Notes under the pieces: model-generated
Seen by the model: the letters and a program-made list of their open reading frames with translations, nothing else
Databases searched by the model: none
Told to the model about the DNA's origin: nothing
In this document: positions 23,485-63,223 of the stretch, in pieces
Layout: each line of letters opens with the position of its first letter
Position numbering within the stretch: the stretch's first letter is position 1
Program-made: the position numbers and the translations under genes
Assembly: GCA_963717505.1 (NCBI GenBank)
Contig: OY970342.1
Span: 3,680,001-3,744,000, forward strand
Origin: Candidatus Eiseniibacteriota bacterium
GTDB taxonomy: Bacteria; Eisenbacteria; RBG-16-71-46
DNA length: 64,000 bases
Reading direction: 5' to 3'

Positions 23485-23841
23485 TCACTGCGGGATCGTC
23501 GTGAGGGCTCCGGCTTCGGTCGCGTGGATCGCCAAATGCTTGTCGAGGCCGAGCAACTCGACCACTGCGCGAGTCTGCTCCGATGGCTCGGCGAGGAACA
23601 GTGCACCCGCCTGCTCCCGGAACTGCTCGGTCAGCGAGAACAGAGCGCCGATTCCGGTCGAGCCGAGGAACGAAACACCGGCCAAGTTGAGGACGAGGTT
23701 CTGGCCCTGGGCCTGAACCGCTGCGCACCGGCGGATCAACGACGGCGCGGTGAAGCCGTCGAGCCGCCCGCGCAGCCTCAAGACCACGGCCCGTCCCTGG
23801 ACGGGACCGTCCTCGATCTGCAACTCCTCGGAGTTCATCAC
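23485..23841 (-). CDS. STAS anti-sigma-factor antagonist (copy 1)
   Basis: LRGRLDGFTAP, LNLAGVSFLGSTGIGAL (phospho-Ser position retained). Confidence 0.9.
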   Translation of the reverse strand: MMNSEELQIEDGPVQGRAVVLRLRGRLDGFTAPSLIRRCAAVQAQGQNLVLNLAGVSFLGSTGIGALFSLTEQFREQAGALFLAEPSEQTRAVVELLGLDKHLAIHATEAGALTTIPQ

Positions 23842-25910
23842 GCGGCGACCTCCTTGCCGAGCCTCTCGGGGTCGAACGCCATGGACACCAGATTCCCTTC
23901 GGGAGTCCCAGGGTAGTACGTCACGGTGCTCGCCGTCCGGTGCAGGATCTCCATCCCCAGTCCGCGACCCCGGCGTCTCACCTCAGAGTTCGTCAGGTCC
24001 GGGCGTTTCCACTCCTGCGAGTTGAAGGTGTTGCCCCAATCCCGGAGCAGGAAGTAGCCGGCCCCCATCGACGCGGGCTCGACGTCCTGATCCTGTTCGG
24101 CGACCCACCACAGCTCGAGGCGTAGGGCGTCGTTGCACCCATAGGCATGCTCCACGACGTTGGCCGCAGCCTCGTGGAGCGCCAGTTCGAGCGCTCCGAG
24201 CGCGGCCGCGCTCAGGTGTCGCGCCGGTGTCGAACGGACCAGCCAGTCGTCGATCCGACGCAGCGCCGCCAGGCTCGCGGGCAATACCAGCCTCGCCCCG
24301 CGGGCTTCCGCTTCGGCGAGCCGGGCGAGCCCCTCGCTCCACGACAGGCGGCCGGAGTCGGTCACGATGCCTTCGCGATCCCGCGCGATTACGAGGACCG
24401 TTTCGTCATCGCTCCGCGGGGCATTTCCACGCCACGACGCCACCGACTGCGAGAGTGCCGTCACCACCGCCCGGCTGCCGCCGCGTGCAGCGGGCGCGAC
24501 GGCCCGAGCCATGCGCTCGGCGCCATACTCGCCGGCGTTCTCGCCGACGGTTTCCGTCACGCCGTCCGTGTACTGGATCGCGACGTCCCCGGGTCCGAGC
24601 TGAAGGCGCACTTCTTCGAACGCGGTGCGGGACCTGGCCGTACGCACGATCCCGAGCGGCACGCCCTCGCCCCGATGCCATTCGGGTTCGGTGACTCCGT
24701 CGCGCAGCACCAGCAGCGGATGATGTCCGGCCGAAGCGAACACCAGTTCTCCGGTGCTCGGATCGAGGATTCCATAGAACATGGTGACGAAGCTTCCGCG
24801 TTCGATCATGGTGCCCATCTGGCGATCGAGTGCCACGAGCAACTCGGCCGGCGAGCGATGCACCGGCGCCAAAGCCCGCAGCAGAGCATGCAGCATCGCG
24901 GTGACCAGACTCCCGCCCAATCCCTTGCCGGCGACATCGGCGACCACCAATCCCATGCGACCGTCGGGCAGGTCCAGTGTCTGGTAGTAGTCGCCGCCGA
25001 CTTCGCTCGCCGGTTCCTGGCGGCCCTCGATGTGAAACGGACCCACCATGCGCTCGCGCGGGGGCAACAGGGACTTCTGGATCCGCTGCGCCAAGTCCAT
25101 CTCGTGAGCCAGCCGTTCCCGTTGGACCAGGTCCTGCTGCGCCAGCTCGAGTTGCCCGGCCATTCGATTCACCGTGTCGGCCAGAGCGCCGATCTCGCTC
25201 CGATCGCGCACTTCGAGGCGCGCCTTCAGGTCTCCGCCGCCGATGCGCTCGAGTCCGGCGCGCAGCGCGGCCACCGGGCGCAACACCAGGGACGACACGA
25301 CCAGCGCGGCGGCGATACCCAGCAGCACGAAGACCAGCAGGACCAGCGCCTGCTCCTGTCGCGCCTGCTCGATTCGATCGGCGATCGCCGACTGACGCAG
25401 GGCAATCCAGACGGTGCCCACCGAGCGGCCGTCGCCGTCGGCGACCGGCGTCGAGACCACGACCAGCTCACGATTTCCGGCAATCGTCTCGCCGGGGAGC
25501 GGCTCCGGCGCCTCGGACAACGCGGTGAGCCCCGAAGGCGGGACGAATGTGGTTCCCAAACGGCGCACGTCGCTGTCTCCCTGAATCACTCCGTCGCGGT
25601 CGGTGACCACGACGAACGCGATCTGCGACTGGCGTTCGAGGATCTGCTTGGCGAGCGGCAGGAGCGCCCACTCCGGGGTTTCGGTGAGCAGGGCGTCGGC
25701 GCCGACCAGCGCCACCTGGCGCGCCTGGAGCTGGAGCCCGGCCTCCATCTCGGCCGACAGCGCCCGGCGCGCATTGCGTTCGGTCACCGCGCCCACCGCG
25801 GCCACGACGGCCGCAACCAGCACCATCATGGCGAAGGCCACGAGCCAGCGGATGCTGTGCGTGATGCGCATCGGTCGCCCGGGACCGCGCATTCGGGTCG
25901 CCACGGTCAT
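23838..25910 (-). CDS. Membrane HAMP + PP2C/SpoIIE phosphatase + RsbW-type Ser kinase fusion (copy 1)
   Basis: Two TMs, HAMP, GGDYY, ADVAGKG, TDGVTE, DDET; C-terminal EAAANVVEHAY, DWG, GRGLGM. Confidence 0.9.
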   Translation of the reverse strand: MTVATRMRGPGRPMRITHSIRWLVAFAMMVLVAAVVAAVGAVTERNARRALSAEMEAGLQLQARQVALVGADALLTETPEWALLPLAKQILERQSQIAFVVVTDRDGVIQGDSDVRRLGTTFVPPSGLTALSEAPEPLPGETIAGNRELVVVSTPVADGDGRSVGTVWIALRQSAIADRIEQARQEQALVLLVFVLLGIAAALVVSSLVLRPVAALRAGLERIGGGDLKARLEVRDRSEIGALADTVNRMAGQLELAQQDLVQRERLAHEMDLAQRIQKSLLPPRERMVGPFHIEGRQEPASEVGGDYYQTLDLPDGRMGLVVADVAGKGLGGSLVTAMLHALLRALAPVHRSPAELLVALDRQMGTMIERGSFVTMFYGILDPSTGELVFASAGHHPLLVLRDGVTEPEWHRGEGVPLGIVRTARSRTAFEEVRLQLGPGDVAIQYTDGVTETVGENAGEYGAERMARAVAPAARGGSRAVVTALSQSVASWRGNAPRSDDETVLVIARDREGIVTDSGRLSWSEGLARLAEAEARGARLVLPASLAALRRIDDWLVRSTPARHLSAAALGALELALHEAAANVVEHAYGCNDALRLELWWVAEQDQDVEPASMGAGYFLLRDWGNTFNSQEWKRPDLTNSEVRRRGRGLGMEILHRTASTVTYYPGTPEGNLVSMAFDPERLGKEVAA

Positions 25911-27785
25911 CGCTGGGTTCCAAACAGCTCGCGCGTGCGTTCTTTCCGCTCGCGGGCCCGCGCCAGGAAGCGTGCAGCGCGCGAATCCGTCGGATCCGCG
26001 CGTTGGGCTTTCTCCCAGTAGCTAACGGCAGTATCCAGCCGGCCGGCCGCGTAGGCGTCCATTCCGCGAGCCAGGTACTCGCGGTTGAGGTAGCGACCCG
26101 CGGCGGCATCGCCCGGATCCAGCGACAGCGCCAGCTCCCAGTAGCGAACCGCGTCGTCGGCTCGGCCCGCGCTCATCGCGGCGACCCCGCGCTTCACCAG
26201 CTGCTCGGCCTCGCGGCGATTGGCGGCGGAAGCGCTCGGTTGCGTCGGCGGAGACGGCGGGGCACCCGTCGCTTCGCGGTCGATCGCGGCCTGCCGTTCC
26301 TGCTCCTCGGTGCGCCGGGCGATCAGGACCTCGGTCCGCTCGAGCATGGCCGCGGCTTCGGCATCACTGGGGTTGGCCCGCACCAGAGCCGCAAAGCCGG
26401 CCCGAGCCCGCGCCAGATCTCCGGCGATCAGCGCATCGACCGAGGATCGGAATCGCGCGCCGCGATCCGCGTCACGCATTGCCTGGCGTTCCCCGGCCGC
26501 GCGCACGCGCTTCGCTCCCGCGACCGCAGCGGTGTCCTGGGGCGCGATCGCCAGCGCCCGGGTGTATGCGTCGGCGGCCGACACCAGGTCGGCTTCAGCC
26601 TCCCGCTCCCTGCCGAGCGCAACGTTGCCGCGCACGCCGAGCATGCGCACCCGCTGGTCGGCCGAGTCGAGGATGGCCGCGGTCGCCAAGAGGTCGAGCG
26701 CTTCCTCGTACGAGCGCTGGCCGATCGCCGTCTCGGCCCGCGCCACCAGATCGTCGAGACGCTCGGCGCCGCGCCGATCGAACTCGGATTCGAGCCGATT
26801 CTGGAATTCGCGCTCCGCTGCGTCTCGAGCCGCGGCCCGGCTCGCAGTCACGGTCGGTCCGAACGATTGCGTGAGCCCGACTCGGTGCACCGGCCCGAGC
26901 GCCACGTTCTCGAACGCATATCCGAACTCGAGGTTGCGCCAGGTCACGCCCGCGCCGGCCGTCAGCCGATCTTCGTGGAGGCCGACGCGCATCGCGAGCA
27001 GCCGGCGGACCAGGAGCTCGGCCCCCGCGTGCAATTTCGGCGACACTGTTTGCGAAGCGTCGCCATCCACGGCCACGGTCAGCTCCTGGCTGCCGACCCA
27101 GCCCCGCCACGCGAGTCCACCTCGCCAGGTGCGTGGATCGCGAACACTTTCGCGGTCGAGTCGCAGCGCGGGTTCCAGCGCATTGCGAATGCCGAGACCC
27201 GCGGTCAAACCCTCGAGCCATGACGCGCGGAAGCCGAGCGCCGGTCCGATCGCCACCAACACACCGAGGTCTCCCGCCAAGGCACTCGCTCCATATCCGC
27301 CCACGTCCTGACTCTGCAGCTTGAGCGAAGCACCGAGACTCCATGCGTCGTTGATCGGACGCGCATAGCCGACGGTGATTTCGGTTTCGGAGCTCGAGAA
27401 CTCGTCGCCCGAGACGTTGTTGCGCTCGTCCCGCGGCTCGACCCCGCCGACACCCACGCTGCGCACGCCGAGACCGAGCGAGCCCCAGCGCCAGCTGGGC
27501 GCCACCAGGGCGGCGTAGCTGTCGTGAGAATCGACTTCGACTCCCGCCGAGTGCGCGACTTCGTAGCCGAAACGCGACGCGAGCGCGAGCCCTGCCGGAT
27601 TCCAGGTCAGGGCGGCAGGATCGGTGGCGATCGCGCAGAACGCTCCACCCAGCGCCAGCGCCCGAGCGCCGGTGCCATTCGCGAACGGCGAACGCGTGCC
27701 GGCATCCTCGGCGGCGCGCGCCGACCCGGCCGTTCCGAGCTGCACGATCGCGAAGAGCGAGAGCGATCCCCGATACGATCTTCAT
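25907..27785 (-). CDS. PorV/PorQ-like outer-membrane barrel fused to coiled coil and TPRs (copy 1); apparent +1 frameshift in signal peptide
   Basis: GARALALGGAF..DPAALTWNPAGLA motif; TPRs at C-terminus; coupled ATG 27785 is out of frame with the main ORF (25907..27745). Confidence 0.8.
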
Positions 27786-30700
27786 CGGCGCACCGCCACC
27801 TTGCGCAGGGCACGCGCGCTGGCGCCCGCGTCGTACTGCACCCGCAGCTCGGCGATGTAGACGCCGTTCCTCACGGTGTGACCGGCCCCGTTCAGACCGT
27901 CCCAGCGGTCGAGCTGTTGCATGCCGGCAGCGCGCGGCTCGCCGTCGGCCAGGGTCCGAACCGGCTCGCCCGCGAGCGTGAACAGGCGCAGCCAGACCCG
28001 GCCGTCGCCGTTCAAGTAGTACGCGAAGGACGTCGCTTCCCGGCCAGCGGCAAATGGATTTGGGAAGTTGGAGTAGCTTGCGGACAGTTCCAGCGGCCCG
28101 AACCCGCCGGCCTCGGTCCAGAGCGGGAAGGTCAGCCCAGCCGCGGGCAGCACCTGAATCTGGAGAACGCCGCCGCTCGGTTGCACGACGCCGACTCCGG
28201 AGGCGTCGAGGCCCACGCGAACCGTGCCGGACTCGAGTCCCGCCCGAGGGATGACGCTCACCTCGACTGTCCGTGAGCTGTCGGCATCGACCTCGAGTTC
28301 TGTGGCTCCGACCAGCGTCGCGGTCACCGAATCCGGCGTGAGCGCTCCTTGCGCCCACACCGCGCCGTCCACGCGCAGCAGGATTTCCGAGATCGTGGCG
28401 CCGAGAGCCTGATCGGTGAACGTGTGATCGGCGCCGCGCAGCGCGAGGTGGCGGACGCGAATCGATCCGGCTCCCGGCGCTGCCGGGTTCTCGAATCGAA
28501 GCGTGGCGATCGGGACTTCGCGCCCGTCTCCCGCCAACACGGCCGGCATCTCGGTCGCGAGCGAGGCCACCAGCGTCCGCGCCGGCGCCTGGACGTGCGT
28601 CAGGCCGGACGTGAACGGCAGCGGGCCCCCCTCCGGCACCACCACCGCGCGCGTCCCGAGATTGGCGTCATAGACGGAAATTCCCTCGCCGAACACCGAG
28701 AGCTCGAGGAAACCTTCGGGCGCGGCCGCCGAGATGTCCGCGCTCAGGTCGATCGTGGCGCTGTCGCCGGCAGCCAGTGTGCGACCGCCCACGTCGATGC
28801 CGGTGGCTTCGCCGCTGGTCGGCGGATCGCCGTTGCCCCCAGCGTCGACGCCATTCCAGCGCAGGCGCAGCGCGTCGAGGAACAAGGCGGGCGCAAGTGG
28901 TCGGCGCGCGTGATCGCGGCTGAGCACGATCAGGCTGTCGACTCGCAGCGGAGCGTCGCCGGGTCCGCCCGGATGGCGGAGCACCAGGGTCATGGCGCCG
29001 ATGCCCGCGTCCCCCGCGCGCACGCCCACCGGAAAGCGCGGCGTGCCGCGCACGACCACCTGATCGGCCGGCATCTCGACGATCACCGTCCCGCCGGGCA
29101 GCGGGTCGGTCGCGAACATCACGATCACCGGGTCGCGGGTAATGGCATCGCGCGCATCGAACAGCGTCGAGTCGGTGAGCCGCAGCCGGAACGCTCCGGC
29201 CGCCGCCAGGCTCGCGACGTCGGCGCTCACCAGCACGTCGACCGCCGTGTTGACCGGGACGCTGATCGCCGGGCTCAACAGCAGCGTGAGCTTGGGTCCG
29301 TCGACTGCGAGCACGGCGCGCGAGGCCATCGTCTGGAACCCGCTGCGCACCACGACGTGGCTGACGACGTCCGCCAGCAGCGCGAGGCGCGTGCCCAGCG
29401 TGTCGCTGGCGTCGAGCGCGAGTCCGCCGACGCGCACGTCCGAGGTGATGCCGCCGGCGCCGGGACTCAGCAGCCGGAAGGCCAGCATGGGAACGTCGAG
29501 CTGGCCGGGACCAACGTGAAGGTCGGCCGCCGGCAGCGCACTGACCTCGATGCGTGACGGACGCTCGAACACGCGAGCCAGTCCGGTTTGCACGGGGAAG
29601 CCGCCGGTCAGTCTCACCGCGACTTGAGCGCCGCTGGTCGCATCCTCCGCCACCAGCCACACGCTGTCCTCGATCGCGACCCGGAACGAAGGCGCGGTCG
29701 TGCTCGACTCGAGGTCGAGGCCGACCGTGAGCGTCACCGTCTCGCCCGCGTCGATCGGCACCGGAGTCGCGAGGGTCAGGTCGACCTGGGAGCCGCTGGT
29801 TTCGAGCGAGGTGCGCGACAGGCGTGTGATGGTCCCCTCGTTCACCACCACTCGCGCCAACAGAGAATCGGGAACGATCCCGGCGGCGAACTCGTCCGCG
29901 AGCCCGATGCGCAGCCCGAGGAAGCGGACCGGGGAACCCATCGCATTGGAGTTCGCCAGCTCCAGGTTGAACGCCACGATTCCGGTCTGGCCGCGGTTGA
30001 CCATCGGCGGCAGCGTGGACTCGAAGCTCCCGTCCAAATGGGTGACCTGATCGAAGATATGGTGTGGATCAGTCGCGGCATCCAGGCTGCGCCGCGGGAG
30101 GCCGCTCGGTCGCTCGGTGCCCTGCGCCCAGCCGGTGAGCACGACGTCGCCCGGCGTCGCCGCGCGATAGGTCCACACCAGCGTGTCGCGTTCGCCGGGC
30201 CCCAGGTCGACGCTCGCCGGCGACGGTCCGCTCTCGAAGTTCAGCGATCCGGTCCCGCTCTGTGCCAAACCCGAAGGCGTGACCGCCACCAGCGAATCGA
30301 CGCCGGCGTTGCGCACGACCATCGACACCGTGACCTGCTGGCCAGGGACGCTGGCGGAAGGCTGGATCTCGAGCGAGGCGAGCAGCGGCGAAGCGCTGAT
30401 GGTCAGCGTGGTCGGACCCGCCACGTCGGCGTCCAGTGGGCCGTCGTTTCCCGAGACCACCGTGATGCCCATCGTCGGGATGGCGAAGCGGACGGTCGCG
30501 GAGTCCGTCGGGCTGGCCGCGACTCGCACCGCGGCGAACACGCGTGCGCCGGTCGCGCCCAGAGGCACGGCCAGGGCCGTGATCCGCCAGCCCGCACCTG
30601 TCCAGCTGGCGGGCCCGAGGTCGACGTCGTCGCCGCTGCCCGGGGTGAACGCGCCGTCGCCGCCGTCCCGCCACCAGCGCACTTCGGCGAGGTCGTCGTT

Positions 30701-32398: not shown

Positions 32399-32410
32399 AG
32401 TGCAACTGGC

Positions 32411-32439
32411 GTTATCGGCCGCGATGACAAGCGGCTGGA
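32411..32439 (-). promoter_or_regulatory. sigma28-like promoter of giant-protein operon 1
   Basis: TCCAG-15 nt-GCCGATAAC on the minus strand, 12 nt before ATG. Confidence 0.6.
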
Positions 32440-32530
32440 GCGTTCTGCTGTTGAAGGGCCGGCCCGCCTCTCGTTAGACTTCTTGGTGGCGGCCGCGCAT
32501 TTCGCCCGTTTATCCCACCCGGAGACCCTC

Positions 32531-33744: not shown

Positions 33745-33747
33745 GCC

Positions 33748-35430: not shown

Positions 35431-35433
35431 CCG

Positions 35434-45087: not shown

Positions 45088-45167
45088 CGTTCGCGTGCTC
45101 ATTTTGCTTGTCGTCCGCGTCCGGGGACGGCTACGCTGAATGCCCGGTTCACGGATTCGGAGACCCC

Positions 45168-52519: not shown

Positions 52520-52520
52520 C

Positions 52521-52871
52521 CTAGGCGGCGTGCTCCCGCGCCGCGTCGGCCTCGGAATCGTAGAGGGCGAGGAATTCCTGCAGGTTCAACAGTTCGACTG
52601 CCTCGCGCACCGTCTGTGACGGCGCCGCCAGGCGCAGACTCGCGCCCCGCTCGCGGAACTCCTCGGTGAGCGCGAGCAGCGATCCGATGCCCGAGGAGGA
52701 GAGAAACGTCACGCCCTCGAGATTGAGGATCAGGGGACGGCCGCGCTCGCGAACCGGCACACATTGCTCGATGAGCAACGGGGAAGTGCGCGCGTCCAGT
52801 CGTCCAATGACGCGGAGAACGTCCATGCCCCCGGGCTCCTGGGCAACCTCGAACGATACGTGTTCACTCAT
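52521..52871 (-). CDS. STAS anti-sigma-factor antagonist (copy 2)
   Basis: VIGRLDARTSP, LNLEGVTFLSSSGIGSL. Confidence 0.9.
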   Translation of the reverse strand: MSEHVSFEVAQEPGGMDVLRVIGRLDARTSPLLIEQCVPVRERGRPLILNLEGVTFLSSSGIGSLLALTEEFRERGASLRLAAPSQTVREAVELLNLQEFLALYDSEADAAREHAA

Positions 52872-55047: not shown

Positions 55048-57023
55048 CGCGACCCGATCTCCCGGCTCCGGGCCAGATGCTCCTGCGCGCGCGACAGGTA
55101 GGCGCGCGCGCGTTCGTCACGCGGATCCATGCGCAAGGCGTTCTCCCACTGCCGTACTGCTTCCGTGAGATTCCCGGCCGCGAACGATTCCATGCCGCGA
55201 GCCAGGTACTCCTGTTTGAGACTCTGGCGCACGTTCTGGTAGTCGGGCGCCTTCTCCCACACCAGCTCCCAATAGCGAATCGCGACGTCCGTGTTGCCGG
55301 CCTGCATCGCCGTCAGACCCCGCTGGTAGAGCTCAGCCACTTCGCGTCGCTCGGCGCCGGTCAGCGCTCGGGCGGGCGCCGGCGGCGGAACCGAGGGCTC
55401 AGAGCCGGTTCCTGCGGCCGCGCGTTTGAGCGCAGCCTCGGCGGCGACCAGGCCGGCCGCGCGTGGGTCCAGCGCTCGCGCCCGCTCGAGATCCCGCCGC
55501 GCCTCGTCCAGCGCACCGGCAGCCAGGTCGCGGCGCGCATCGCCGATCAACGCCTCGGCGCGACGAGTGATGGCATCCTGGGTGCGCACGAGCATGGCAC
55601 GGGCTTCCTCGTCCTGCGGATGGACCGCGAGCAGCGCTTCGAAGCTGGAGCGCGCTTCCTCGAGTCGGCCGGCGGTGAATGCGTTCAGGCCCGCCTCGAA
55701 GCGCGACCTCAGCTCCGCGGATCGCGCCGCGCGACGATTGCTCTCGGTCCGGCAGCGCTCGAGCCCAGCGACCGAGATCGAATCGCCTGGAGCCACCTGC
55801 AGCGCGCGCGAATAGGTCACCGCGGCTTCGGAGAACTCTCCGGCGCTTTGCTGCGCCTGCGCCATCGCGCGCAGACTGCGGGCCTCGAGGTTCATGCCTT
55901 GGGGATGCCCCGGATCGAGTGCGCGCAGCAGGGTTGCGCGCTCGACCGCCAGCACCGGATCGCCGGCGCCGAGTGCGGCCTCGACCTCCGCGGCCAGCGC
56001 CCGGGTTCGTTCGCGCTGCCTCGCCTCGAAGGTCTCGGTCAGCCGCGTCTGCATCTCGGCTTCGCGCTCCGCCAGATAGTTGTCTCGTGCCTGTTCGACG
56101 GAGGGACCGAACTGAAACGTCAGGCCGAAACGATGGACCGGAGCCAGCGCCTGATTCTCGAACGCGTACTCGAACTCGGTCGGCCCGACCTGGATCCCGG
56201 AGCCGGCGGTGAGCGTCGATCCGGAGACTCCGATGCGCAGGTCGAACACCGGGTGCGGGCTCAACTCGAGCCCGGCGTGGACCCGCGACGAGCGACCTTC
56301 GACGCTCTCGACGTCGAATGCGATCAGGGCGGCGCCGGTGGCCCGGAACCCGTGACGCAGCGCGAGCCCCAGGCGCGCGATACGCGGATCGGCGACTTCC
56401 TCGCGATCGAGCACCATCGCGGGCGGCAGCAGGTTGGCGAGCGCGAAGCCGAAGGTCAGGTCGCGCATCCAGGCCGGGCTGGTGCTCGCCAGGGCCGCCG
56501 GCCGAATCATCATCCCGAGATCGGCGCCGACGCCGTTGGCGGCCCGGCCACCCAGCTCCTGGCGACGGATCTTCGCGACCGCGCCGAGGCTGATCGCGTC
56601 GCCGACCATGCGCCCGTAGCCGAGTGCCACTTCCGATTCGAGGCTCTCGAGATCTCCGGTCGGCAGGTTGCGCTCGTCGCGACCTTCGATCCCGCCGATT
56701 CCGAACTGCCGATAGGTCGCGGCCAGGCCACCCCACCGCCAGCTCGGCAGTACGACGCCCGCATACGATTCGCGGAAGTCGAGCTCGTCGGGCGACGACT
56801 GCGTCAGCTGGAACTGGGCGCGCGACGCGATCCCGAGCCCACCGGGGTTCCACATCCAGCCCCCCGCGTCGTTCGCGACCGCGGTGTAGGCGCTGCCGAG
56901 CGCCAATGCGCGATTGCCGGCGCCGACTGAGAACACCGAGGTGGTGCCGGCATCGTCGGCGGCATGGGCGACTCCGGCGAGCGCGACCCACAACATCAGG
57001 ACCCCGACCAGGCGGCGGCTCAT
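55044..57023 (-). CDS. PorV/PorQ-like outer-membrane barrel fused to coiled coil and TPRs (copy 2)
   Basis: ATGA-coupled start 57023; signal peptide ..VAHA; GNRALALGSAY..DAGGWMWNPGGL; TPRs. Confidence 0.85.
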   Translation of the reverse strand: MSRRLVGVLMLWVALAGVAHAADDAGTTSVFSVGAGNRALALGSAYTAVANDAGGWMWNPGGLGIASRAQFQLTQSSPDELDFRESYAGVVLPSWRWGGLAATYRQFGIGGIEGRDERNLPTGDLESLESEVALGYGRMVGDAISLGAVAKIRRQELGGRAANGVGADLGMMIRPAALASTSPAWMRDLTFGFALANLLPPAMVLDREEVADPRIARLGLALRHGFRATGAALIAFDVESVEGRSSRVHAGLELSPHPVFDLRIGVSGSTLTAGSGIQVGPTEFEYAFENQALAPVHRFGLTFQFGPSVEQARDNYLAEREAEMQTRLTETFEARQRERTRALAAEVEAALGAGDPVLAVERATLLRALDPGHPQGMNLEARSLRAMAQAQQSAGEFSEAAVTYSRALQVAPGDSISVAGLERCRTESNRRAARSAELRSRFEAGLNAFTAGRLEEARSSFEALLAVHPQDEEARAMLVRTQDAITRRAEALIGDARRDLAAGALDEARRDLERARALDPRAAGLVAAEAALKRAAAGTGSEPSVPPPAPARALTGAERREVAELYQRGLTAMQAGNTDVAIRYWELVWEKAPDYQNVRQSLKQEYLARGMESFAAGNLTEAVRQWENALRMDPRDERARAYLSRAQEHLARSREIGSR

Positions 57024-60000
57024 CGCACCACCATCACTTTCCGCAGCAGGCGTTCGCTGGTGCCGTCGTCGAGCCGCGCGACCAGTTCGGCCACATAGAC
57101 GCCGTTGGTGACCACGGCGCCCCGCCCGTTGCGACCGTCCCATGCCAGGTCCTGGTGGAGTCCCGAGGACAACGAGGCGTTTTCGAGCAGGCGCGCGACC
57201 CGTTCGCCGCGCGGAGTCCAGATTGTCAGGTCCACATGCCCCGAGGCCGGCAGGTAGAACACGAACGACGTGGCCGATCGACCGGCCGCGAACGGGTTGG
57301 GGAAGTTGCCGTAGCTCGCGGCCAGCGTGCCGCCGGAATAGCTGGCGAGATCGGTCCACTCGGGGAACGCTCGACCGCTCACCGGCACGACCGCGACCGT
57401 GAGCAATGCGCTCGATGGCTGCACCACTCCGACCCCCGCGGCGTCGAGCGACAGTCGGAAGCTTCCGGGCGCACCCGCGGCCCGGGTCGTCATCCGGATC
57501 TCGAGCGTCACGGGAACGCCGGGATCGAGATCCAATGGAGTAGCCGCGACCAGCGACACTCCCGCCGAGTCCGCAGTCAGCGGCGCGCTCGATGCCCACA
57601 ACACTCCCCCGTTGTAGGCCTCGATCGCCGAAGCGAAGGCACCCACCGCCTGCGGCGCGAAGTCGCCGTCGCCGCCACCGAAGCGCAGAGATTGGACGGC
57701 GATGGTTCCGGAGCCGGGCACTGCGGCATTGGTCAGCGCCACTCGCGCGAGCACGACCGTGCTGCCGTCCGCGGGCAGCACCGCCGGAACCAGACTCTGC
57801 AGATCCGCCACCAAGGTCCGCGCCGGCGGCTCGAGTCGGGCGAGCCCCGAGCTGAGCGGGAGACTGGCTCCGTTCTCCGCGGTCGGGATCAGCGGCTGGC
57901 CGGAGTTGTCATCGACCGCCACGATCCCGCTGGCGGGCAGCATCAGCTCGAGGAAACCAAGGGGCGCGGTCGGCTCGAGGTCCAGCTCGACCGCCATCGA
58001 GTCGAGGGCGCCGGCGAGAAGGATCCACCCGCCGAGATCGACCGGGATGCCGCCGGTCGCCGGCGGATCGCTGACGCTCGCGATCACGCTCCCGTTCCAG
58101 CGGATGCGCAGCACGTCGATGTAGGTCGACGGCGGCAGGGGGGCGCGCGCGGCGTCCTGAACCTCGAACACCAGCCGGTCGAAGCGCACCGGCGCGGTGC
58201 CCGCGCTCCCGGGATGGCGCCAGCGCGCGGTGAACGCCATGAGCCCGGGCCGGCCGACCGAGACCACCGGCGGGAAGGCCGGCGATCCCGCCACGCGCAG
58301 GCCGCTCGCCGGCTGCTGGATCGTGACGGTCGGGCCGACGAGCGGATCGACCGCGAGTCGGACCGTGACGCGCTCGCCGGTGTTGGCGTCGCGCGCATCG
58401 ACCGCGGCGGTGTCGCGGATCACGAGTCGGAACGAACCGGGAACCGCCGCAGGGGCGATCTCGGCGAGGAAGTTCAGGTCGAGCGGCGCGTTCAACGGCA
58501 CCGTGACCATGGGCGAGAAAACGAGCGTGACAACGCTGTCTTCGGCCGAGGTCACCGACCGGTCGGCCACAGCCCCAAAGGGTCCTTCGACGCGCAGGCG
58601 CGAGAGCCAGGCGTCGGGTGCTGCGACGGTTTGTCCGGCGTCGTCGACCAGGACCACGTCGAGGCCGCCGAGCCGCACGTCCGATGTCAGGCCCACGATT
58701 CCGGGATTCTCGAGGCGCAGGCGCAGGACAGGCGCTCGCGTCAGGCCCGGGCTCGAGCGCACCGAGGCGGTGTCCGCCGAGGCCAGGCGCAGTTCACTGG
58801 CGGCCGAGACGATGCGCGCAAGACCGGTGCGGATGGGATAACTCTGGTCGCGCAGCTGGACGTCGACCGGCGCTCCGCTGGTCGCGTCCTCGGCGCTGAA
58901 ATTCGTACTGTCGTCGACGATCATGCGGAAGCTGGGCACGATCGCCCCCGGCGCGACATCGAACCGCAACCCGAGGGTGACGGGCTGGTCCTGGAGCACC
59001 GTGACCGGATTCGCGAACGTCAGGTCCATGACGCTGCCCGTGGTCTCGAGATTGGTGCGCGACAGGTAGACGTCGGAACCTTCCTGAACCACCACGCGGG
59101 CGATCACGTCTGCCGGAACAACGCCGCCGCCGGCGCCCGACTCCAACCGCACCCGCAGCCCCCTGAACCGCACAGCTGAGGAAGCTAGATCGCTCTCGTT
59201 GCTCAAGGTCAGCGTCAGCGGCACGACGTCGGACTGACCCTGATTGACCGTGAACGGCATCGACTGAATCGCGAAGCAGGCGAGGCTCTCGGCCTGAACG
59301 TAGACGTGGTGCAGACCCGATTGCACGTTGAGCGCGCGTCGCAAGAGGCCGCTGGTCGCGCCGGTGCCCGCGGCGTTGCCGCTCCAACGTACGTTGCCCG
59401 GGATCGCGGACTGATAGCTCCAGCTGAAGGTCGTGGTCTGCCCTGGGTCGAGGTCGGCGGCGGCCGGCACCGGACCGGTGAGGTAGGTGGAGGCCCCATC
59501 GCCGGCCATGGCCAGAACCGACGGCGACAGTCCGTTGATCCGCTCGGAGCCGATGTTGCGCACTTGCATCTGCACGGTGACCAGCGCGCCGACCGTGGTG
59601 GCATCGCGGTCGAGCATCAGCGTCGCGAGCAGCGGCGCGCTGCTGAGCAACAACGGCTCGGGATTCGACACCGAGCCATCGAGCGGACCTTGGTTCCCCG
59701 ATTCGGTGACGATGCCGTTCACCGGAATCTCGAGTTTCAGGGTGGCCGAGTCCGCGGGCGATCCCGACACCGTTACGCCGACGAACAGGCGCGCCCCGAC
59801 CCCGTTCATCGGTTCTGCGAGCAGCGGGCTCTGCCAGACGCCGGCGAGCGGCGTCAGCGGCCCCAGATCGAGATCCCCAACCGGCTCGAACAGGCCGTCG
59901 CCGTCATCGCGCCACAGTCGCAGCTCGGCGACGTCGGACGGCGTCGCGGTCCCGGAGTTCACGAAGCGCACCCCGCGCAGGACGTCGTTGGCGTAGCCGT

Positions 60001-63000
60001 TGCGCGGGATCACGATGTCGAGCGCGCGCACCGGCCCGTCCCCCGGACCCAGGGTGACGCCGGGCGCACCGAGGTTGGTCACCTGCTCGGCGATCATGCC
60101 GTCCACCGCCCAGCGCGAGCGGGAGGTCACCGGGAAGGTCGCGGCCACCGAACTCAACGAGTCGAAGCTGATGTCGGCGGCGTTCGCGAGGTATGCCGAC
60201 AAGCTGTCTCCGTCGGCCGCGCCGGTCGGTGAGGCGTCGCCGGTGACGAACAGGACGCGGGCATTCCCGGCGGGAAGGTTCCAGGCGACGCCAGTGAACA
60301 CCGCCCGGCCACCGCTGAACGACGAGGTGGCGAGCAATGGATCGGTCGCCAGGTCGCCCAGCACGCCGTCGCCGTTGCCATCGGCGCGCAGCTCGACGCG
60401 GCGGAACTCGCCGTCGCGCTCGGCGACCGAGCCGGGACCCACCGTGCGGTTGGTCACGGTCAATCCGGTGAGGGCTCGATCGAACAGGTAGGTGTTGCCG
60501 ACCACCAACTCGAGCAACCGAACGTCGAGTGCGTTCGGCCACACTGCGCTGGGCGCCAGGGGCCGCCCCGACAAGGTGATCCGATCCTGAGCGCTGGTCA
60601 TCTGGTCGAACGGGTTCTCGACCTGAGCGTCGACCGGCCCGCTGTTGCCACTGGACATGCCCACGCCGAGATCGGTGGCACTCGGCAAAGCGAGGCGGAT
60701 GGTTCGTCCCTCGGCCGCGGTGGCGGCGACATCGACGGTGACGAACATCACGGCTCCGCCGGCGCCGACCGGGTGCGCGAGCCCGGTGATCTCCCAGCGG
60801 TTGCCGGTGAAGTACAGCGTTCCGAGACGGGTGTCGTTCGCTGCAGCGAACGTGCCGTCGCCGTCGTCCGACCAAAGCTCGACCGCGTCGAGATCATCGA
60901 CGGGCGTGGCGGTTCCGAGGTTGACGACGTTGAGCCGGACCAGCACGTCGGCCGCATAGCCGTTCTGCGGAAGGCGGAACGCAAGAGCGAGTCGGCGGCG
61001 AGCGCCGATCGGCAGGTTCGCGGCCGCGACCGGCATCAGGCCGATCTGGGCCGCGGACATGCCGTCGACCGCGAAGGTTCCCGGCGGGTCAATCGGCCAG
61101 TTCGCGTCGATCGGGGCGGTCCCGACCACCGCCGCCAGGTCGGCGATGCGCAGGTCGAGCAGGTCGCCATCGCGGGCCGCGAGCGAGGCCCCCGCGTGAA
61201 CGCCGAACGCGATCGTCTCTCCGGCGTCGAGCACGACCTCCAGTCCGGTGAACGCCGCGGTGCCCGAGGTGAAGCTGCCACTGGCCACCTGTTGCGCGGG
61301 AACTCCCCCACCCCGCTGGACGATCAATGCGAGCGGGGTCCAGTCCTGGTCCAGCTCGGCCGGACTGCCGGGCCCAGCCGCTCGATTCTCGAGTTGCAGC
61401 GCGGTCAGCGTTTCCGGCTCGGCCGACGGATTGCGAATCTGGAGGTTCAGGACCTCCTGGCTGCCGGCTCCTGGAATCAATGACTGCGGAAGCTGGCTCG
61501 CCGACGTGATGACGATGGCGTCGGGGGGCGGAATGACGGTGATGCGCGCCGTGTCGCTGAATGCGCCGAGCTGGGCGATCACGAAGCCGAAGCCGACTCC
61601 GGTCGCGGTGAATCGACCGGCGCCGTCGACCGTTCCAATGCCGCCTTCGACCCGCCAGCCCGGAGCGACGTTCAGCGGATTGCCGAAGTCGTCGCGGCCA
61701 CTGGCGCTCAGTTGCACCGTGTCTCCGAGCGCGACCGTCGCGTTGGCGGGCGACACGGTCAGGTCGGCGAGCGGTCCGGGAACCACGCGCACCCGCCACG
61801 AGTCACCGTCGGCGGCGCCATTGGCATCGCCTTCGGTCGCGACCTGTTCCGGCGTGCCCGGGGTCGAGGAGTCGTCGAAGAACACCGTCAGCTCGGACCC
61901 CGCCGTGTCCGCGACGGTCGGCACCGAGACCCCGAACACGACCATGATGCGCTCGGGGACGGCCACCGGGTCGAAGTTGATCATCATGCTGTTTGGGCCG
62001 CTGTTGTCCACGAACGGCGGCTCGACGGTGCCGACCCGGAATTGAAGGATCGCCGGTGTGCCGTAGCCGGCCGGCAGCGGAATCCGGATTCGGTTGATGC
62101 CGGTGTTGCCCAGGGCGAACACCGGTTCCAGGTAGACGACGAAGGGCTGGGCGCTGGTCCCCGCGCTGACCGTGGGTGGCAGGATTTCGGCGGTCGCCGA
62201 TTGCGCGGCGACCGTGGACACCACGGTCGCGGTCATCGGCAGGATCACGTCGACCGGCGGTCCGCTCCCCGGATCGTGCAGTCGCACGTCCAATGCTCCG
62301 CGGTACTGCTGCGGGGGAAGCCCGGTGGGAATCCGCGTCCACAGGGTGAGGCCGTACGACTGGGGCGTTTCCGCGAGGTTCGGCGGAACCGAATCGACCA
62401 CGGTGGTGAACGCCGTTCGGAGCAGGCCCGAGTCGCCGGTCGAGGCCCGCCAGGTGACGAGATCCTGAGGTGCGCCGACCGGAAACACGTCCGGCGTTTG
62501 CACGCCGATCATGTCCTGGCCCTGGAGGCGCAACCGGCTCCACTCGTTGCTCTGGACCCCCACGACGATCGTGCCCGAGGCGGGGTCCGCGAGCGGCAGC
62601 GGCATCGGTCCCGGCTCGCCCGGCGCGAAGTGTGCGGCGGTGTCGGCGACGACCAGCACGAACGACGGTTCCATGTCCTGGTTGGCAACCACGGCGTCGA
62701 TCGGAAGCGATTCGAGGGCGGTATTAACGCGTACGCGCAGGTTCCACTCGCCACTCGACGAGGCGCGCGCGATCTGTCCGGGGGCGATCGCGAACGTCAG
62801 GCCGTGCACCGAGGTGTCGTTGGGGATCGTGTCGGGCGAGCAGAGCGCCGGGTCGATCCGCCATGACGATCCCGCCGGCTCCTCGAGCGCCCATGCGTGC
62901 TGCGGAGCGCGAGTGAAGCGGTACACGCCACGGAATGCGGGGCCCGACGGTCCCGAGGCCAGGTCTCCGTACTGCAGCCTCACCTCGACGTCGGTGATGT

Positions 63001-63223
63001 CGTGAAACCCGTCGTCGTCGTGGAGCGCGACCCGAACCAGGAAGGTGTCGCTCGGCGCGAGCTGAATCGCCGTCGTTCCGGAGCGGGTGAAGACCCGGAC
63101 CGAATCGATGACGGCGTTCGCGGCCGAGGCCGGTCGAACGGCAAGCACGCACAGGACCGCGGCCCCCAAAGAGACCACGGTCCAGCAACGGAGCGCCTGC
63201 AGGCGCCCCGGTGGGAGCAGCAC
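57020..63223 (-). CDS. Giant secreted beta-rich repeat protein (2067 aa) with Ig-like domain and FlgD/T9SS-type C-terminal domain (copy 2)
   Basis: Signal peptide; Big_2-like LTVSPANATVALGDTVQLSASG; repeats shared with copy 1; SYGNFPNPF...WDGRNGRG..VTNGVYVAEL. Confidence 0.85.
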   Translation of the reverse strand: MLLPPGRLQALRCWTVVSLGAAVLCVLAVRPASAANAVIDSVRVFTRSGTTAIQLAPSDTFLVRVALHDDDGFHDITDVEVRLQYGDLASGPSGPAFRGVYRFTRAPQHAWALEEPAGSSWRIDPALCSPDTIPNDTSVHGLTFAIAPGQIARASSSGEWNLRVRVNTALESLPIDAVVANQDMEPSFVLVVADTAAHFAPGEPGPMPLPLADPASGTIVVGVQSNEWSRLRLQGQDMIGVQTPDVFPVGAPQDLVTWRASTGDSGLLRTAFTTVVDSVPPNLAETPQSYGLTLWTRIPTGLPPQQYRGALDVRLHDPGSGPPVDVILPMTATVVSTVAAQSATAEILPPTVSAGTSAQPFVVYLEPVFALGNTGINRIRIPLPAGYGTPAILQFRVGTVEPPFVDNSGPNSMMINFDPVAVPERIMVVFGVSVPTVADTAGSELTVFFDDSSTPGTPEQVATEGDANGAADGDSWRVRVVPGPLADLTVSPANATVALGDTVQLSASGRDDFGNPLNVAPGWRVEGGIGTVDGAGRFTATGVGFGFVIAQLGAFSDTARITVIPPPDAIVITSASQLPQSLIPGAGSQEVLNLQIRNPSAEPETLTALQLENRAAGPGSPAELDQDWTPLALIVQRGGGVPAQQVASGSFTSGTAAFTGLEVVLDAGETIAFGVHAGASLAARDGDLLDLRIADLAAVVGTAPIDANWPIDPPGTFAVDGMSAAQIGLMPVAAANLPIGARRRLALAFRLPQNGYAADVLVRLNVVNLGTATPVDDLDAVELWSDDGDGTFAAANDTRLGTLYFTGNRWEITGLAHPVGAGGAVMFVTVDVAATAAEGRTIRLALPSATDLGVGMSSGNSGPVDAQVENPFDQMTSAQDRITLSGRPLAPSAVWPNALDVRLLELVVGNTYLFDRALTGLTVTNRTVGPGSVAERDGEFRRVELRADGNGDGVLGDLATDPLLATSSFSGGRAVFTGVAWNLPAGNARVLFVTGDASPTGAADGDSLSAYLANAADISFDSLSSVAATFPVTSRSRWAVDGMIAEQVTNLGAPGVTLGPGDGPVRALDIVIPRNGYANDVLRGVRFVNSGTATPSDVAELRLWRDDGDGLFEPVGDLDLGPLTPLAGVWQSPLLAEPMNGVGARLFVGVTVSGSPADSATLKLEIPVNGIVTESGNQGPLDGSVSNPEPLLLSSAPLLATLMLDRDATTVGALVTVQMQVRNIGSERINGLSPSVLAMAGDGASTYLTGPVPAAADLDPGQTTTFSWSYQSAIPGNVRWSGNAAGTGATSGLLRRALNVQSGLHHVYVQAESLACFAIQSMPFTVNQGQSDVVPLTLTLSNESDLASSAVRFRGLRVRLESGAGGGVVPADVIARVVVQEGSDVYLSRTNLETTGSVMDLTFANPVTVLQDQPVTLGLRFDVAPGAIVPSFRMIVDDSTNFSAEDATSGAPVDVQLRDQSYPIRTGLARIVSAASELRLASADTASVRSSPGLTRAPVLRLRLENPGIVGLTSDVRLGGLDVVLVDDAGQTVAAPDAWLSRLRVEGPFGAVADRSVTSAEDSVVTLVFSPMVTVPLNAPLDLNFLAEIAPAAVPGSFRLVIRDTAAVDARDANTGERVTVRLAVDPLVGPTVTIQQPASGLRVAGSPAFPPVVSVGRPGLMAFTARWRHPGSAGTAPVRFDRLVFEVQDAARAPLPPSTYIDVLRIRWNGSVIASVSDPPATGGIPVDLGGWILLAGALDSMAVELDLEPTAPLGFLELMLPASGIVAVDDNSGQPLIPTAENGASLPLSSGLARLEPPARTLVADLQSLVPAVLPADGSTVVLARVALTNAAVPGSGTIAVQSLRFGGGDGDFAPQAVGAFASAIEAYNGGVLWASSAPLTADSAGVSLVAATPLDLDPGVPVTLEIRMTTRAAGAPGSFRLSLDAAGVGVVQPSSALLTVAVVPVSGRAFPEWTDLASYSGGTLAASYGNFPNPFAAGRSATSFVFYLPASGHVDLTIWTPRGERVARLLENASLSSGLHQDLAWDGRNGRGAVVTNGVYVAELVARLDDGTSERLLRKVMVVR

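Follow-up and report, generated by a model that had tools for sequence, protein, structure and literature searches.

In the T9SS of Bacteroidota, the C-terminal domain (CTD) of PorU stays on the barrel protein PorV and that of PorZ stays on PorQ (PMC10202324). The cognate CTD-barrel pairs already described are these two and the type-B CTDs with PorP/SprF (PMC10202324; PMC9143113), and PorP also occurs together with the TPR protein PorE and a cargo of type B (PMC9143113). The CTD of PorA activates PorXY by binding the sensor kinase PorY in the periplasm (PMC12152298). Among partner-switching regulators, HsbR and CrsR contain a PP2C domain followed by an RsbW-type kinase, which act on a STAS partner; one such partner, HsbA, can associate both with a histidine kinase (CfcA) and with the response regulator paired with it (CfcR) (10.1101/2024.11.25.625174). 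Given these Bacteroidota precedents, the dedicated cargo-barrel pair put forward in the original prediction for the locus studied here is not a new idea.

We analysed a window of 64,000 nt (the whole stretch of DNA presented) and recovered in place the eight ORFs named in that prediction. All of them are located on the minus strand and they constitute two operons of four products each, encoded in the same order: (i) a giant all-beta protein, (ii) a barrel of the PorV/PorQ family extended by a helical stalk and TPR tail, (iii) a membrane sensor kinase and (iv) a STAS protein (Table 1). The products of operons 1 and 2 share 42% identity over 1516 aligned positions (giants; E = 0.0), 40% (barrels; E = 2e-130), 43% (sensors; E = 3e-176) and 49% (STAS proteins; E = 1e-32). 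Judged from the sequences, this similarity is far beyond chance, and the operons are paralogous. According to the coordinates, the giant/barrel and barrel/sensor junctions of both operons are ATGA overlaps, the junction of sensor 1 with STAS 1 is a GTGA overlap, and that of sensor 2 with STAS 2 is an overlap of 8 nt. The proposed pair of paralogous operons with overlapping stop and start codons is thus borne out by ORF coordinates and by the 40-49% identity per protein. A blastp search against ORFs called crudely from the genome (4.16 Mb) revealed these two copies only, and they are old. The content of four genes held for both operons, but a histidine kinase gene at the end of operon 2 had been overlooked; it begins 1 nt past the stop codon of STAS 2, and operon 2 is therefore regarded as consisting of five genes.

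Table 1. Features of the two operons (positions in the window).
Feature	Position	Strand	Remarks
Giant protein 1	27782..32398	-	ORF, 1538 aa
Barrel-TPR protein 1	25907..27785	-	ORF proper 25907-27745; gene probably starts with the ATG at 27785
Membrane sensor 1	23838..25910	-	690 aa; Pfam, hydropathy
STAS protein 1	23485..23841	-	118 aa; Pfam STAS, TIGR00377
Giant protein 2	57020..63223	-	2067 aa; paralogue of giant protein 1
Barrel-TPR protein 2	55044..57023	-	frame open up to 57599; ATG at 57023, then a signal-peptide-like segment
Membrane sensor 2	52864..55047	-	727 aa; architecture as in sensor 1
STAS protein 2	52521..52871	-	116 aa; Pfam STAS
Soluble histidine kinase	51134..52519	-	461 aa; gene 5 of operon 2; Pfam HisKA and HATPase_c

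Giant protein 1 starts with a signal-like hydrophobic segment (detected by hydropathy), which is followed by tandem beta-sandwich domains and, at the C terminus, by a conserved sorting-type domain of about 100 aa. In an AF2 model, its last 850 aa are all-beta (pLDDT 93.6), and Foldseek matched the model to generic Ig-like arrays only. Giant protein 2 has approximately 535 extra residues at the N terminus and a CTD identical in type. Conservation within the giants is highest in the CTD (0.71 versus 0.52 for the body). The profile TIGR04183 (T9SS type A sorting domain) was compared with both giant tails and with two other proteins of the window. It gave no match to either giant tail at E ≤ 1; the tail encoded at 35068-35427 passed the cut-off of 23 bits with 30 bits, and that at 47385-47744 stayed below it with 19.5 bits. 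The CTDs of the giants match only the PorU and M6i models, at the C-terminal end of each, with E between 5e-7 and 1.4e-5 (5e-7 to 8e-6 for giant protein 1). A local HMM seeded from both tails gathered 179 ORFs of the genome. Taken together with the TIGR04183 result, these matches place the giant tails in a divergent subclass of the broad sorting-domain class.

The genome of the host, which is 86.7% complete and contains frame breaks, was searched with profiles of the sorting machinery. We found a SprA homologue (226 bits, cut-off 200), with its pieces spread over several frames, and a PorU-like gene (355.9 bits against a cut-off of 420), which adjoins a PorV-family gene at C1:2961514-2962384 that is likely to be the PorV of this genome. 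A gene for a CTD protein followed by a PorV-family gene occurs at five further places. GldK was not found in the genome (best score 25.6 bits), and GldL and GldM had no match in it, the control genomes being silent as well; the machinery therefore appears to differ from the T9SSs studied so far.

Barrel-TPR protein 1 scored 97.8 bits against the family profile NF033709 (PorV_fam; cut-off 90). Its counterpart in operon 2 is a borderline member, since it scored 85.3 bits alone and 90.1 bits only when neighbouring matches in the same frame were included. Both proteins stay below the cut-offs of the PorV equivalog NF033710 (20.8 and 16.7 bits; cut-off 250) and the PorQ equivalog NF033711 (56.5 and 37.4 bits; cut-off 220). 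The AF2 model of barrel 1 comprises a FadL-like barrel of 14 strands (residues 59-295, pLDDT 88.7), then a helix of 44 residues and a TPR-like tail. The best Foldseek matches of the barrel model are 8gl6_F (E 1e-11, TM 0.64) and 6h3i_F (E 5e-10, TM 0.66), chains F of T9SS translocon entries, which we take to be PorV chains; FadL and TodX come next. A domain scan detected TPR repeats in both tails, and within this conserved periplasmic tail of about 300 residues the last TPR pair is a local conservation peak (0.67). The PorV/FadL-like fold of the N-terminal domain, expected beforehand, agrees with the model and its closest translocon structures, and the coiled coil/TPR tail agrees with the long helix and the repeats, alongside the NF033709 match. 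A comparison of frame with homologues revealed that a shift of 1 nt separates the reading frame of the ATG and signal peptide of barrel 1 from that of the barrel body; the break falls on the GGGG run at 27768-27771 and is probably an assembly indel.

Both sensors contain, in this order, a transmembrane segment, a periplasmic sCache_3_2 domain, a second transmembrane segment, and HAMP, PP2C (SpoIIE; 144-146 bits) and RsbW-type kinase (HATPase_c_2; 42-56 bits) domains, as identified with Pfam. In sensor 1, the sCache_3_2 domain spans approximately residues 43-186 and the hydrophobic segments lie at 24-42 and 188-206. The HAMP-PP2C-kinase fusion with two transmembrane segments and its STAS partner had been recognized correctly: the Pfam domains and the two hydrophobic segments present in each sensor agree with it, but the account had left out the sCache domain in the periplasm. 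Motifs of both PP2C and kinase can be read in the translations, and one periplasmic motif of the sensor forms a local conservation peak (0.71). This type of sensor is rare (164 clusters at E ≤ 1e-30 among 1.84 billion representatives), and all other blastp matches to the two sensors in the window's genome begin at the HAMP/PP2C part.

The small proteins match the Pfam STAS profile with 67-72 bits (72.3 bits for STAS 1), and STAS 1 matches TIGR00377 with 61.4 bits, which by sequence assigns it to the anti-sigma-antagonist type. In an alignment to 1auz_A, a Ser of STAS 1 falls on the first of the two Ser residues in DSSG, a motif of SpoIIAA, and this is presumably the phosphorylated residue. The putative parts of a partner switch present in the sequences are a PP2C domain, a HATPase_c_2 kinase and a STAS protein with a candidate phospho-acceptor Ser. 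Pfam scans of the operons and of 35 other ORFs of the window revealed no sigma or anti-sigma gene in the operons, nor a TonB-dependent barrel, an anti-sigma factor or an ECF sigma among all ORFs scanned. The histidine kinase, present in the window only after operon 2, is composed of a weak GAF-like N-terminal part, HisKA and HATPase_c and has no hydrophobic segment. Its orthologues in other genomes (34-45% identity) immediately follow STAS genes. The kinase is present in 24 of 32 PP2C-class loci with enough flanking sequence and absent from the other eight. This kinase is the best candidate for the partner of the STAS protein, to which we infer a functional link.

A neighbourhood survey of 65 loci encoding a barrel-TPR relative, in Eisenbacteria and Krumholzibacteriota-type MAGs, revealed that the predicted gene order is kept. 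In 56 of the 59 loci with upstream sequence, the gene of the giant shares the strand of the barrel gene and ends where the latter starts; in all 57 loci whose downstream sequence reaches at least 600 nt, the sCache-HAMP sensor is the next gene. In two loci (L007 and L021) the giant gene is located elsewhere in the locus, on the opposite strand; in L038 the giant is missing and the sensor is short. We also searched 206 genomes of the phylum in the reverse direction, with a profile of the sensor N terminus: among its 54 strongest matches, 49 adjoin a barrel/TPR match. Strong sensor-STAS pairs lacking a neighbouring barrel were seen three times (G014:C35, G143:C14 and probably G040:C89).

The cytoplasmic part of the sensor is less constant. 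Of 50 loci, 34 have a PP2C output, 15 an HD-GYP output and one neither; in a sister clade, an intact HD-GYP domain replaces PP2C/kinase and STAS behind the same periplasmic sensor. HD_5 was detected at 109-129 bits in 13 of 14 third genes scanned, the exception (L038) comprising sCache and HAMP only, and the HD and GYP motifs are kept in all 18 genes of the HD-GYP class. In a quick tree, the two outputs fall on the two sides of one branch (SH-aLRT 99), which fits one ancient swap. A constant periplasmic part combined with a changing cytoplasmic output is the pattern that a sensory input module would show, and the position of the enzymatic outputs behind HAMP is in keeping with signalling from outside to inside.

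We tentatively propose, with a confidence slightly short of even, that the whole constitutes an envelope module conserved in Eisenbacteria-type bacteria, in which a surface complex is read by the sCache-HAMP sensor. The giant beta-sandwich protein would be exported by Sec, sorted in a T9SS-like manner via its CTD and kept on the cell surface by a PorV-family barrel of its own, the product of the following gene, as PorU is kept on PorV or PorZ on PorQ. The barrel would extend into the periplasm as the helical stalk and TPR tail, and the periplasmic domain of the sensor would read the state of barrel or cargo, direct contact with the TPR tail being the favoured route. The sensor may then favour either its PP2C phosphatase or its RsbW-type kinase activity and so set the phosphorylation of the STAS protein, which would act on its partner, possibly the histidine kinase encoded right after it; in the sister clade, the same input would lead to an HD-GYP c-di-GMP phosphodiesterase. 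The relay across the envelope suggested originally is plausible, and we infer its CTD-barrel binding, TPR-sensor contact and outside-to-inside direction. The stronger claim, that a giant on a PorV-type barrel, connected to a Cache-HAMP sensor by the stalk and TPR tail of that barrel, is a previously unrecognized class of trans-envelope device, is doubtful. If it is true, binding, pulling or loss of the giant would directly become a partner-switch, histidine-kinase or c-di-GMP signal, and T9SS-type sorting would be tied to surface sensing beyond Bacteroidota.

It is rather unlikely, yet deserving of attention, that the barrel-TPR protein only exports or holds the giant, its TPR part working as a chaperone or docking site in the periplasm in the manner of PorE and PorW, which are TPR proteins too, and that the sensor is an ordinary regulator, which binds a periplasmic solute with no contact to the barrel and tunes the production or use of the adhesin via STAS, or c-di-GMP in the sister clade. 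Domains of the sCache_3_2 fold family, to which the Pfam match assigns the sensor, usually bind small molecules, and the sensor may therefore read a solute and not a protein. The three sensor-STAS pairs with no barrel nearby point the same way, as does the accompaniment of PorP and its type-B cargo by PorE, described in PMC9143113; co-inheritance in an operon would also be expected of a mere regulator of the cargo. However, a periplasmic domain of this type almost always lies beside a barrel-TPR gene (the 49 of 54 strong places), the link between sensor and barrel outlasts the change of output domain, and the operon contains no transcription factor.

The sensor could also bind the CTD of the giant while this waits in the periplasm, as PorY binds that of PorA (PMC12152298), in which case it would report export load or failure and not surface events. 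The conservation of the CTD above all other parts of the giants is in keeping with such a checkpoint, which we nevertheless consider unlikely, as it leaves the conserved tail of the barrel unexplained. Control in the opposite direction, with a cytoplasmic state passed via HAMP to the periplasmic domain and on to the TPR tail, which would hold or release the giant, is very improbable. Its attraction is the cast of the Lap adhesin system, i.e. a giant surface protein (LapA), an outer-membrane pore (LapE) and a HAMP-bearing inner-membrane protein (LapD), since the locus has a giant surface protein, a pore-like partner and a HAMP protein too. Against it, the cytoplasmic domains look catalytically intact from their motifs (HD and GYP, PP2C and kinase) and not like degenerate receptors, and Pfam scans found neither a LapG-like protease nor a T1SS gene in the window.

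The proposed module looks like an undescribed coupling of surface and interior signalling in little-known bacteria; as the original prediction had anticipated, no description of this architecture was found in the literature searched. As in the T9SS pairs described (PorU-PorV, PorZ-PorQ, SprB-SprF and PG1035-PorP-PorE), a CTD cargo is encoded beside its own PorV-like barrel. In the PorP case, as reported, a separate periplasmic TPR protein, PorE, joins the complex, whereas here barrel and TPR are one polypeptide. The pair also differs from those of Bacteroidota in that its barrel falls outside the PorV and PorQ equivalogs and that it is fixed to a membrane sensor gene. Unlike the Bacteroidota with a T9SS, the hosts, Eisenbacteria and Krumholzibacteriota-type bacteria, have no detectable GldK, GldL or GldM. 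The PorA-PorXY-SigP system of Porphyromonas gingivalis, as described, resembles our proposal in that a T9SS CTD cargo informs an inner-membrane sensor; however, PorY is a histidine kinase, PorA is small, and that system has neither a dedicated barrel-TPR protein nor a comparable single operon. In FecA-FecR-FecI transducers and in RcsF/OMP-IgaA, a surface event reaches a regulator in the inner membrane by way of an outer-membrane barrel that extends into the periplasm. By analogy, our proposal would share this working principle and no homologous component. HptB-HsbR-HsbA of Pseudomonas and CrsR-CrsA of Shewanella have, in the published account, the same PP2C-kinase order and STAS partner as the sensor described here, and the candidate phospho-acceptor Ser appears to be common to both. 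The input of HsbR and CrsR is a receiver domain, whereas that of our sensor is TM-sCache-TM-HAMP, and the switch would therefore be driven from the periplasm.

The region, which is GC-rich (about 68-71%), carries two co-directional, minus-strand sets of four ORFs, operons 1 and 2, located exactly at the coordinates of the original prediction. Each set encodes a giant protein, a barrel-TPR protein, a membrane sensor and a STAS protein. The stop and start codons of consecutive genes overlap, as had been claimed: the junctions, calculated from the coordinates, are ATGA or GTGA, or an 8-nt overlap. The two operons are paralogous throughout, the giant proteins sharing 42% identity over 1516 positions (E = 0.0), the barrels 40% (E = 2e-130), the sensors 43% (E = 3e-176) and the STAS proteins 49% (E = 1e-32). 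A blastp comparison of both sets with a crude ORF call of the genome (G000; 4.16 Mb in one contig, of which the window covers C1:3680001-3744000; estimated completeness 86.7%) revealed no third copy, and inspection by eye of the sequences upstream of both giant genes revealed no convincing shared promoter motif. Since a histidine kinase gene, whose product has no hydrophobic segment, is located 1 nt 3′ of the STAS 2 gene, operon 2 comprises five genes, the kinase being the fifth.

Coordinates of the genes of both operons (window) and of further gene pairs in genome G000 (contig C1)
Feature	Position	Strand	Description
Giant protein 1	27782-32398	-	ORF, 1538 aa
Barrel-TPR protein 1	25907-27745	-	ORF; upstream ATG at 27785
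Sensor 1	23838-25910	-	ORF, 690 aa
STAS 1	23485-23841	-	ORF, 118 aa
Giant protein 2	57020-63223	-	ORF, 2067 aa
Barrel-TPR protein 2	55044-57023	-	ORF
Sensor 2	52864-55047	-	ORF, 727 aa
STAS 2	52521-52871	-	ORF, 116 aa
Soluble histidine kinase, operon 2	51134-52519	-	Weak GAF-like part, HisKA, HATPase_c
CTD gene + PorV-family gene	G000:C1 1336662-1341643
CTD gene + PorV-family gene	G000:C1 2706119-2707733
CTD gene + PorV-family gene	G000:C1 91489-93944
CTD gene + PorV-family gene	G000:C1 2305348-2309114
CTD gene + PorV-family gene	G000:C1 2959168-2962384

In operon 1, the ATG upstream of the barrel-TPR ORF overlaps the stop codon of the giant gene and opens a signal peptide resembling those of the closest homologs; its frame differs by 1 base from that of the barrel body, and the shift lies at a GGGG run (27768-27771). 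Because the SprA homolog of this genome is also split over several frames, and in view of the estimated completeness, the shift is probably an assembly indel, a real frameshift being possible.

The barrel-TPR proteins scored 97.8 (operon 1) and 85.3 bits (operon 2) with the PorV-family model NF033709 (cut-off 90), and Pfam/NCBIfam searches identified TPR repeats in both. An AlphaFold2 model (mean pLDDT 88.7), built from an alignment (A1) of 26 of the 31 homolog matches after five partial or low-coverage ones had been dropped, comprises 14 strands (residues 59-295), a single 44-residue helix (299-342) and TPR-like helix pairs extending to residue 607. A Foldseek search of the PDB placed two T9SS translocon entries first, 8gl6 chain F (E 1e-11, TM 0.64) and 6h3i chain F (E 5e-10, TM 0.66), these chains presumably being PorV, ahead of FadL, TodX and TbuX. 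The model and these matches bear out a PorV/FadL-like barrel, the point on which the original prediction had staked itself. Since the scores obtained with the PorV and PorQ equivalog models are far under the cut-offs, the protein is not PorV or PorQ proper. The even number of strands in the model indicates that the C-terminal tail should be periplasmic; the stalk and TPR tail would then reach roughly 12-15 nm into the periplasm, a rough estimate from the model helix lengths. Relatives of this protein are few (31 proteins at E <= 1e-10 in a collection of 5.8 billion), and those that are named are annotated as "TPR repeat protein", one of them being labelled Candidatus Eisenbacteria.

The third genes encode proteins with sCache_3_2, HAMP, SpoIIE-type PP2C (144-146 bits) and HATPase_c_2 domains (Pfam/NCBIfam); the domain list proposed earlier was right as far as it went and lacked the sCache domain. 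This domain is bracketed in each sensor by two hydrophobic segments, and is therefore predicted to be periplasmic. Inspection of the translations by eye identified the PP2C motifs GGD, DVxGKG, TDG and DD, as well as the kinase motifs E..N...H, DxG and GxGxG. The fourth genes encode STAS/anti-sigma-antagonist proteins in which a Ser, which we take to be the phosphorylated residue, lines up with the initial Ser of the SpoIIAA DSSG motif.

The last 850 residues of the giant protein, modelled from 44 sequences (alignment A3; pLDDT 93.6), form a string of beta-sandwich domains. A Foldseek search with this part yielded generic Ig-like arrays only (PrgB Ig-like domains, an S-layer protein, GhpA, integrins and complement proteins), with no pointer to function, and an Atlas search with giant protein 1 yielded only unnamed clusters, in which Krumholzibacteriota was the commonest phylum and FlgD_ig occurred in a minority of members. 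The last ~100 residues are the best conserved (mean majority-residue fraction 0.71 vs 0.52 for the rest). Matches of these tails were to the C-terminal ends of the PorU and M6i models (E 5e-7 to 1.4e-5), with none to the type-A model TIGR04183 (cut-off 23 bits), under which two other scanned proteins of the window scored 30 bits (passing) and 19.5 bits (under the cut-off). Starting from the two giant tails, a local HMM converged on 179 ORFs of G000 that end in a T9SS-like C-terminal sorting-type domain (CTD). The genome also contains an SprA homolog (226 bits, cut-off 200), a PorU-like gene (355.9 bits, under the cut-off of 420) with a PorV-family gene directly after it, and about a dozen PorV-family matches in all. 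Given the CTD tails and these genes, the predicted description of the giants as sorted surface proteins is a reasonable reading. GldK, GldL and GldM were undetected in G000, an absence that is weak for GldL and GldM, because their controls were silent too; sorting in this bacterium may depend on a CTD system without the known motor ring, or with very divergent parts. At five further places a CTD-protein gene is directly followed by a PorV-family gene, and pairing of one cargo with one barrel seems to be a habit of this genome.

The SprA homolog (G000:C1:2397432-2401563, outside the window) is found in pieces across open frames of 330, 494, 842, 94 and 1307 aa. Some of the PorV-family matches at the five further places lie in long open frames (1092 and 727 aa), and are maybe other fusions. 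Between the operons, the window encodes a PA-domain protein (33748-35430, plus strand) and a sortilin/BNR-repeat protein (44826-47747, plus strand), both with a CTD, and beside them an S41 peptidase with a CTD (18633-20993, minus strand). The ORF at 42224-43783 (minus strand) matches HTTM (274 bits) and the lumenal domain of vitamin K-dependent gamma-carboxylase (127 bits), a family unusual for a bacterium of such kind.

A scan of species-representative genomes produced 74 loci with a barrel-TPR match. Nine of them (L066-L074), which contain a short TPR stretch only and no barrel, were rejected and set aside from all tallies; the remaining 65 were tallied by scripted tblastn. The predicted gene order is conserved in other genomes: among the 59 loci whose upstream flank is 300 nt or longer, 56 have a giant-protein match that ends at the barrel start on the same strand, and in every one of the 57 with 600 nt or more of downstream sequence the barrel is followed by an sCache-HAMP gene. 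L007 and L021 have their giant gene at another position of the locus and on the opposite strand, and L038 has none. Where at least 1700 nt were available downstream (50 loci), the third gene encodes PP2C in 34, HD-GYP in 15 and neither in one (L038). All 34 PP2C genes also encode the kinase domain, and 31 are followed by a STAS gene; the STAS match is weaker in L024, lies upstream of the giant gene in L050 and was undetected by the tblastn tally in L043. A histidine kinase gene, with a product 34-45% identical to that of the window, follows STAS in 24 of the 32 PP2C-class loci whose downstream sequence is 4200 nt or longer. In L065 a 430-aa sCache_3_2 gene (14423-15715) follows STAS, replacing the usual soluble histidine kinase.

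The metagenome-assembled genomes bearing these loci are mostly labelled Eisenbacteria (Eiseniibacteriota) and Krumholzibacteriota, with odd cases of Fibrobacteraceae, Omnitrophota and Dormiibacterota; because near-identical sequences among the latter carry different phylum names, we trusted the labels loosely. The GTDB phylum of the window is represented by 206 genomes, of which 108 contain a match to A1 at E <= 1e-40, barrel-only paralogs included. The best E value, read from the table of matches, is <= 1e-90 in 45 genomes, and in four others, of family f15, weaker matches extend beyond the barrel; the counts for the 206 genomes, which include the unpublished genome G073, come from a stricter first look and represent a floor. 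A strong match to the barrel part only (G075:C74:6040-7029, 449 bits), in a genome with no sensor-profile match at E <= 1e-25, may represent a barrel without a sensor.

The output of the sensor is exchangeable. The gene that follows the barrel encodes, in 18 loci, a protein of ~485 aa with the architecture sCache_3_2-HAMP-HD_5 (the HD-GYP form), and no STAS or kinase gene follows it in any of the 11 loci with enough flank. Since the HD and GYP motifs are kept in all 18 genes, the products look like active c-di-GMP phosphodiesterases. The sensor alignment (A2) comprised 53 of 58 matches, after removal of the fragments L014, L016 and L046, the second match of L065, and L044. When a quick maximum-likelihood tree was built from the N-terminal part common to 55 sequences, a single branch (SH-aLRT 99) separated the HD-GYP from the PP2C forms, which is compatible with a single, ancient replacement of the output domain. 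The two window copies are placed in different parts of the PP2C side, that of operon 1 with L013 and that of operon 2 nearest L029 and L004 (weak support), which suggests that the operon duplication is old.

Among 1.84 billion representative proteins, the sensor N-terminal profile matched 164 clusters at E <= 1e-30. The 26 of the best 150 clusters that were scanned with Pfam included PP2C-only forms, a histidine kinase (P0058, 333 bits), a hybrid kinase (P0087) and, among more distant variants, proteins with the kinase domain at the N-terminus. A metagenome contig scan of the P0058 neighbourhood found only unrelated kinases. One library protein (P0050, 1259 aa) contains TPR repeats, sCache, HAMP and SpoIIE in a single frame, a probable result of reading through the overlap between the barrel and sensor genes.

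Of 54 strong sensor-profile places in the 206 genomes, 49 are directly beside a barrel/TPR match. The remaining five comprise two at contig ends and three without an adjoining barrel (G014:C35, G143:C14 and G040:C89, the last with ~450 nt available upstream). Other sensor matches in G000 begin only at the HAMP/PP2C part. The sensor-STAS relatives in G014:C35 (L075) and G143:C14 (L077) lack an adjoining barrel-TPR or giant gene, neither of which was found within ~9 kb upstream of the former pair; both pairs may be orphaned or re-used copies. The link of the periplasmic sensor domain to the barrel-TPR gene is thus very tight and held across the output change, and this genomic adjacency is good evidence that the two proteins work together. 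The linkage supports well the predicted joint action of the giant/barrel pair and the sensor and gives no indication of its manner. The original prediction is confirmed as an observation and partly supported in its interpretation.

In the mechanism that we favour, tentatively and at somewhat less than even chances, the giant protein would, after export, stay at the cell surface, bound through its retained CTD to a PorV-type barrel of its own, and the stalk and TPR tail of the barrel would extend into the periplasm. The sCache domain would read the state of the giant/barrel complex, and HAMP would hand the signal to the PP2C/kinase pair, setting STAS phosphorylation. The parts, folds, linkage and output swap of this scheme are observations, to which we add by inference every contact and the direction of flow. 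Retention of this type has precedents in PorU, which stays on PorV, and PorZ, on PorQ, via a retained CTD (PMC10202324), and type-B cargo occurs with PorP/SprF and the TPR protein PorE (PMC9143113). The conserved downstream histidine kinase might be the target of STAS, a guess that has a precedent in the STAS protein HsbA, for which association with the histidine kinase CfcA and the regulator CfcR is reported (10.1101/2024.11.25.625174).

To a direct relay from the TPR tail to the sensor we give lower chances than to the scheme as a whole. A complex prediction with the tail (residues 297-612 of A1) and the sCache domain (43-186 of A2), run without controls, scored 0.02, the mark being 0.32, and speaks neither for nor against binding. 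A rival explanation is that the barrel-TPR protein serves export or anchoring alone, with the sensor binding a solute. Another is that the sensor could bind the cargo CTD in the periplasm, by analogy with PorY, which binds the CTD of PorA (PMC12152298). Control might also run inside-out, governing adhesin retention in a Lap-like manner; this is less likely than the outside-in scheme favoured here, in view of cytoplasmic domains that appear to be catalytically intact.

The literature searched (abstracts and some passages, with most subscription journals outside) contained no description of the module, in line with the original prediction, and a full-text search of similar coverage, most subscription journals again lying outside it, found no paper linking Eisenbacteria or Krumholzibacteriota with type IX secretion. 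The component parts are already known, as is the concept of cognate PorV-like barrels. What appears to be new is that the barrel is fused to a periplasmic TPR tail and is coupled in a fixed manner to a Cache-HAMP sensor whose outputs can be exchanged, that a kinase gene is present as the fifth gene, and that the module occurs outside Bacteroidota. Pairing of one cargo with one PorV-like barrel is thereby seen to be common in a phylum other than Bacteroidota, seemingly without the known T9SS motor, and this bears on T9SS-like sorting and its evolution. A partner switch and c-di-GMP breakdown are both typical of attach-or-swim decisions, and the natural swap between a partner switch and a c-di-GMP phosphodiesterase points to control of an attached versus free lifestyle. 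Because all hosts are uncultured, the present value of the module is that of a precise, testable hypothesis, whose pieces may be studied as purified domains or in a heterologous host.

The sensors share the PP2C-then-kinase order with HsbR and CrsR, whose input is a receiver domain (10.1101/2024.11.25.625174); the input found here consists of sCache and HAMP. The module is a compact, widely conserved candidate for surface-to-cytoplasm signalling. To our knowledge, signalling from the outer face of the outer membrane to the cytoplasm is known for few systems only, e.g. FecA-type transducers, RcsF and NlpE, and the parts of the candidate described here are quite different from theirs.
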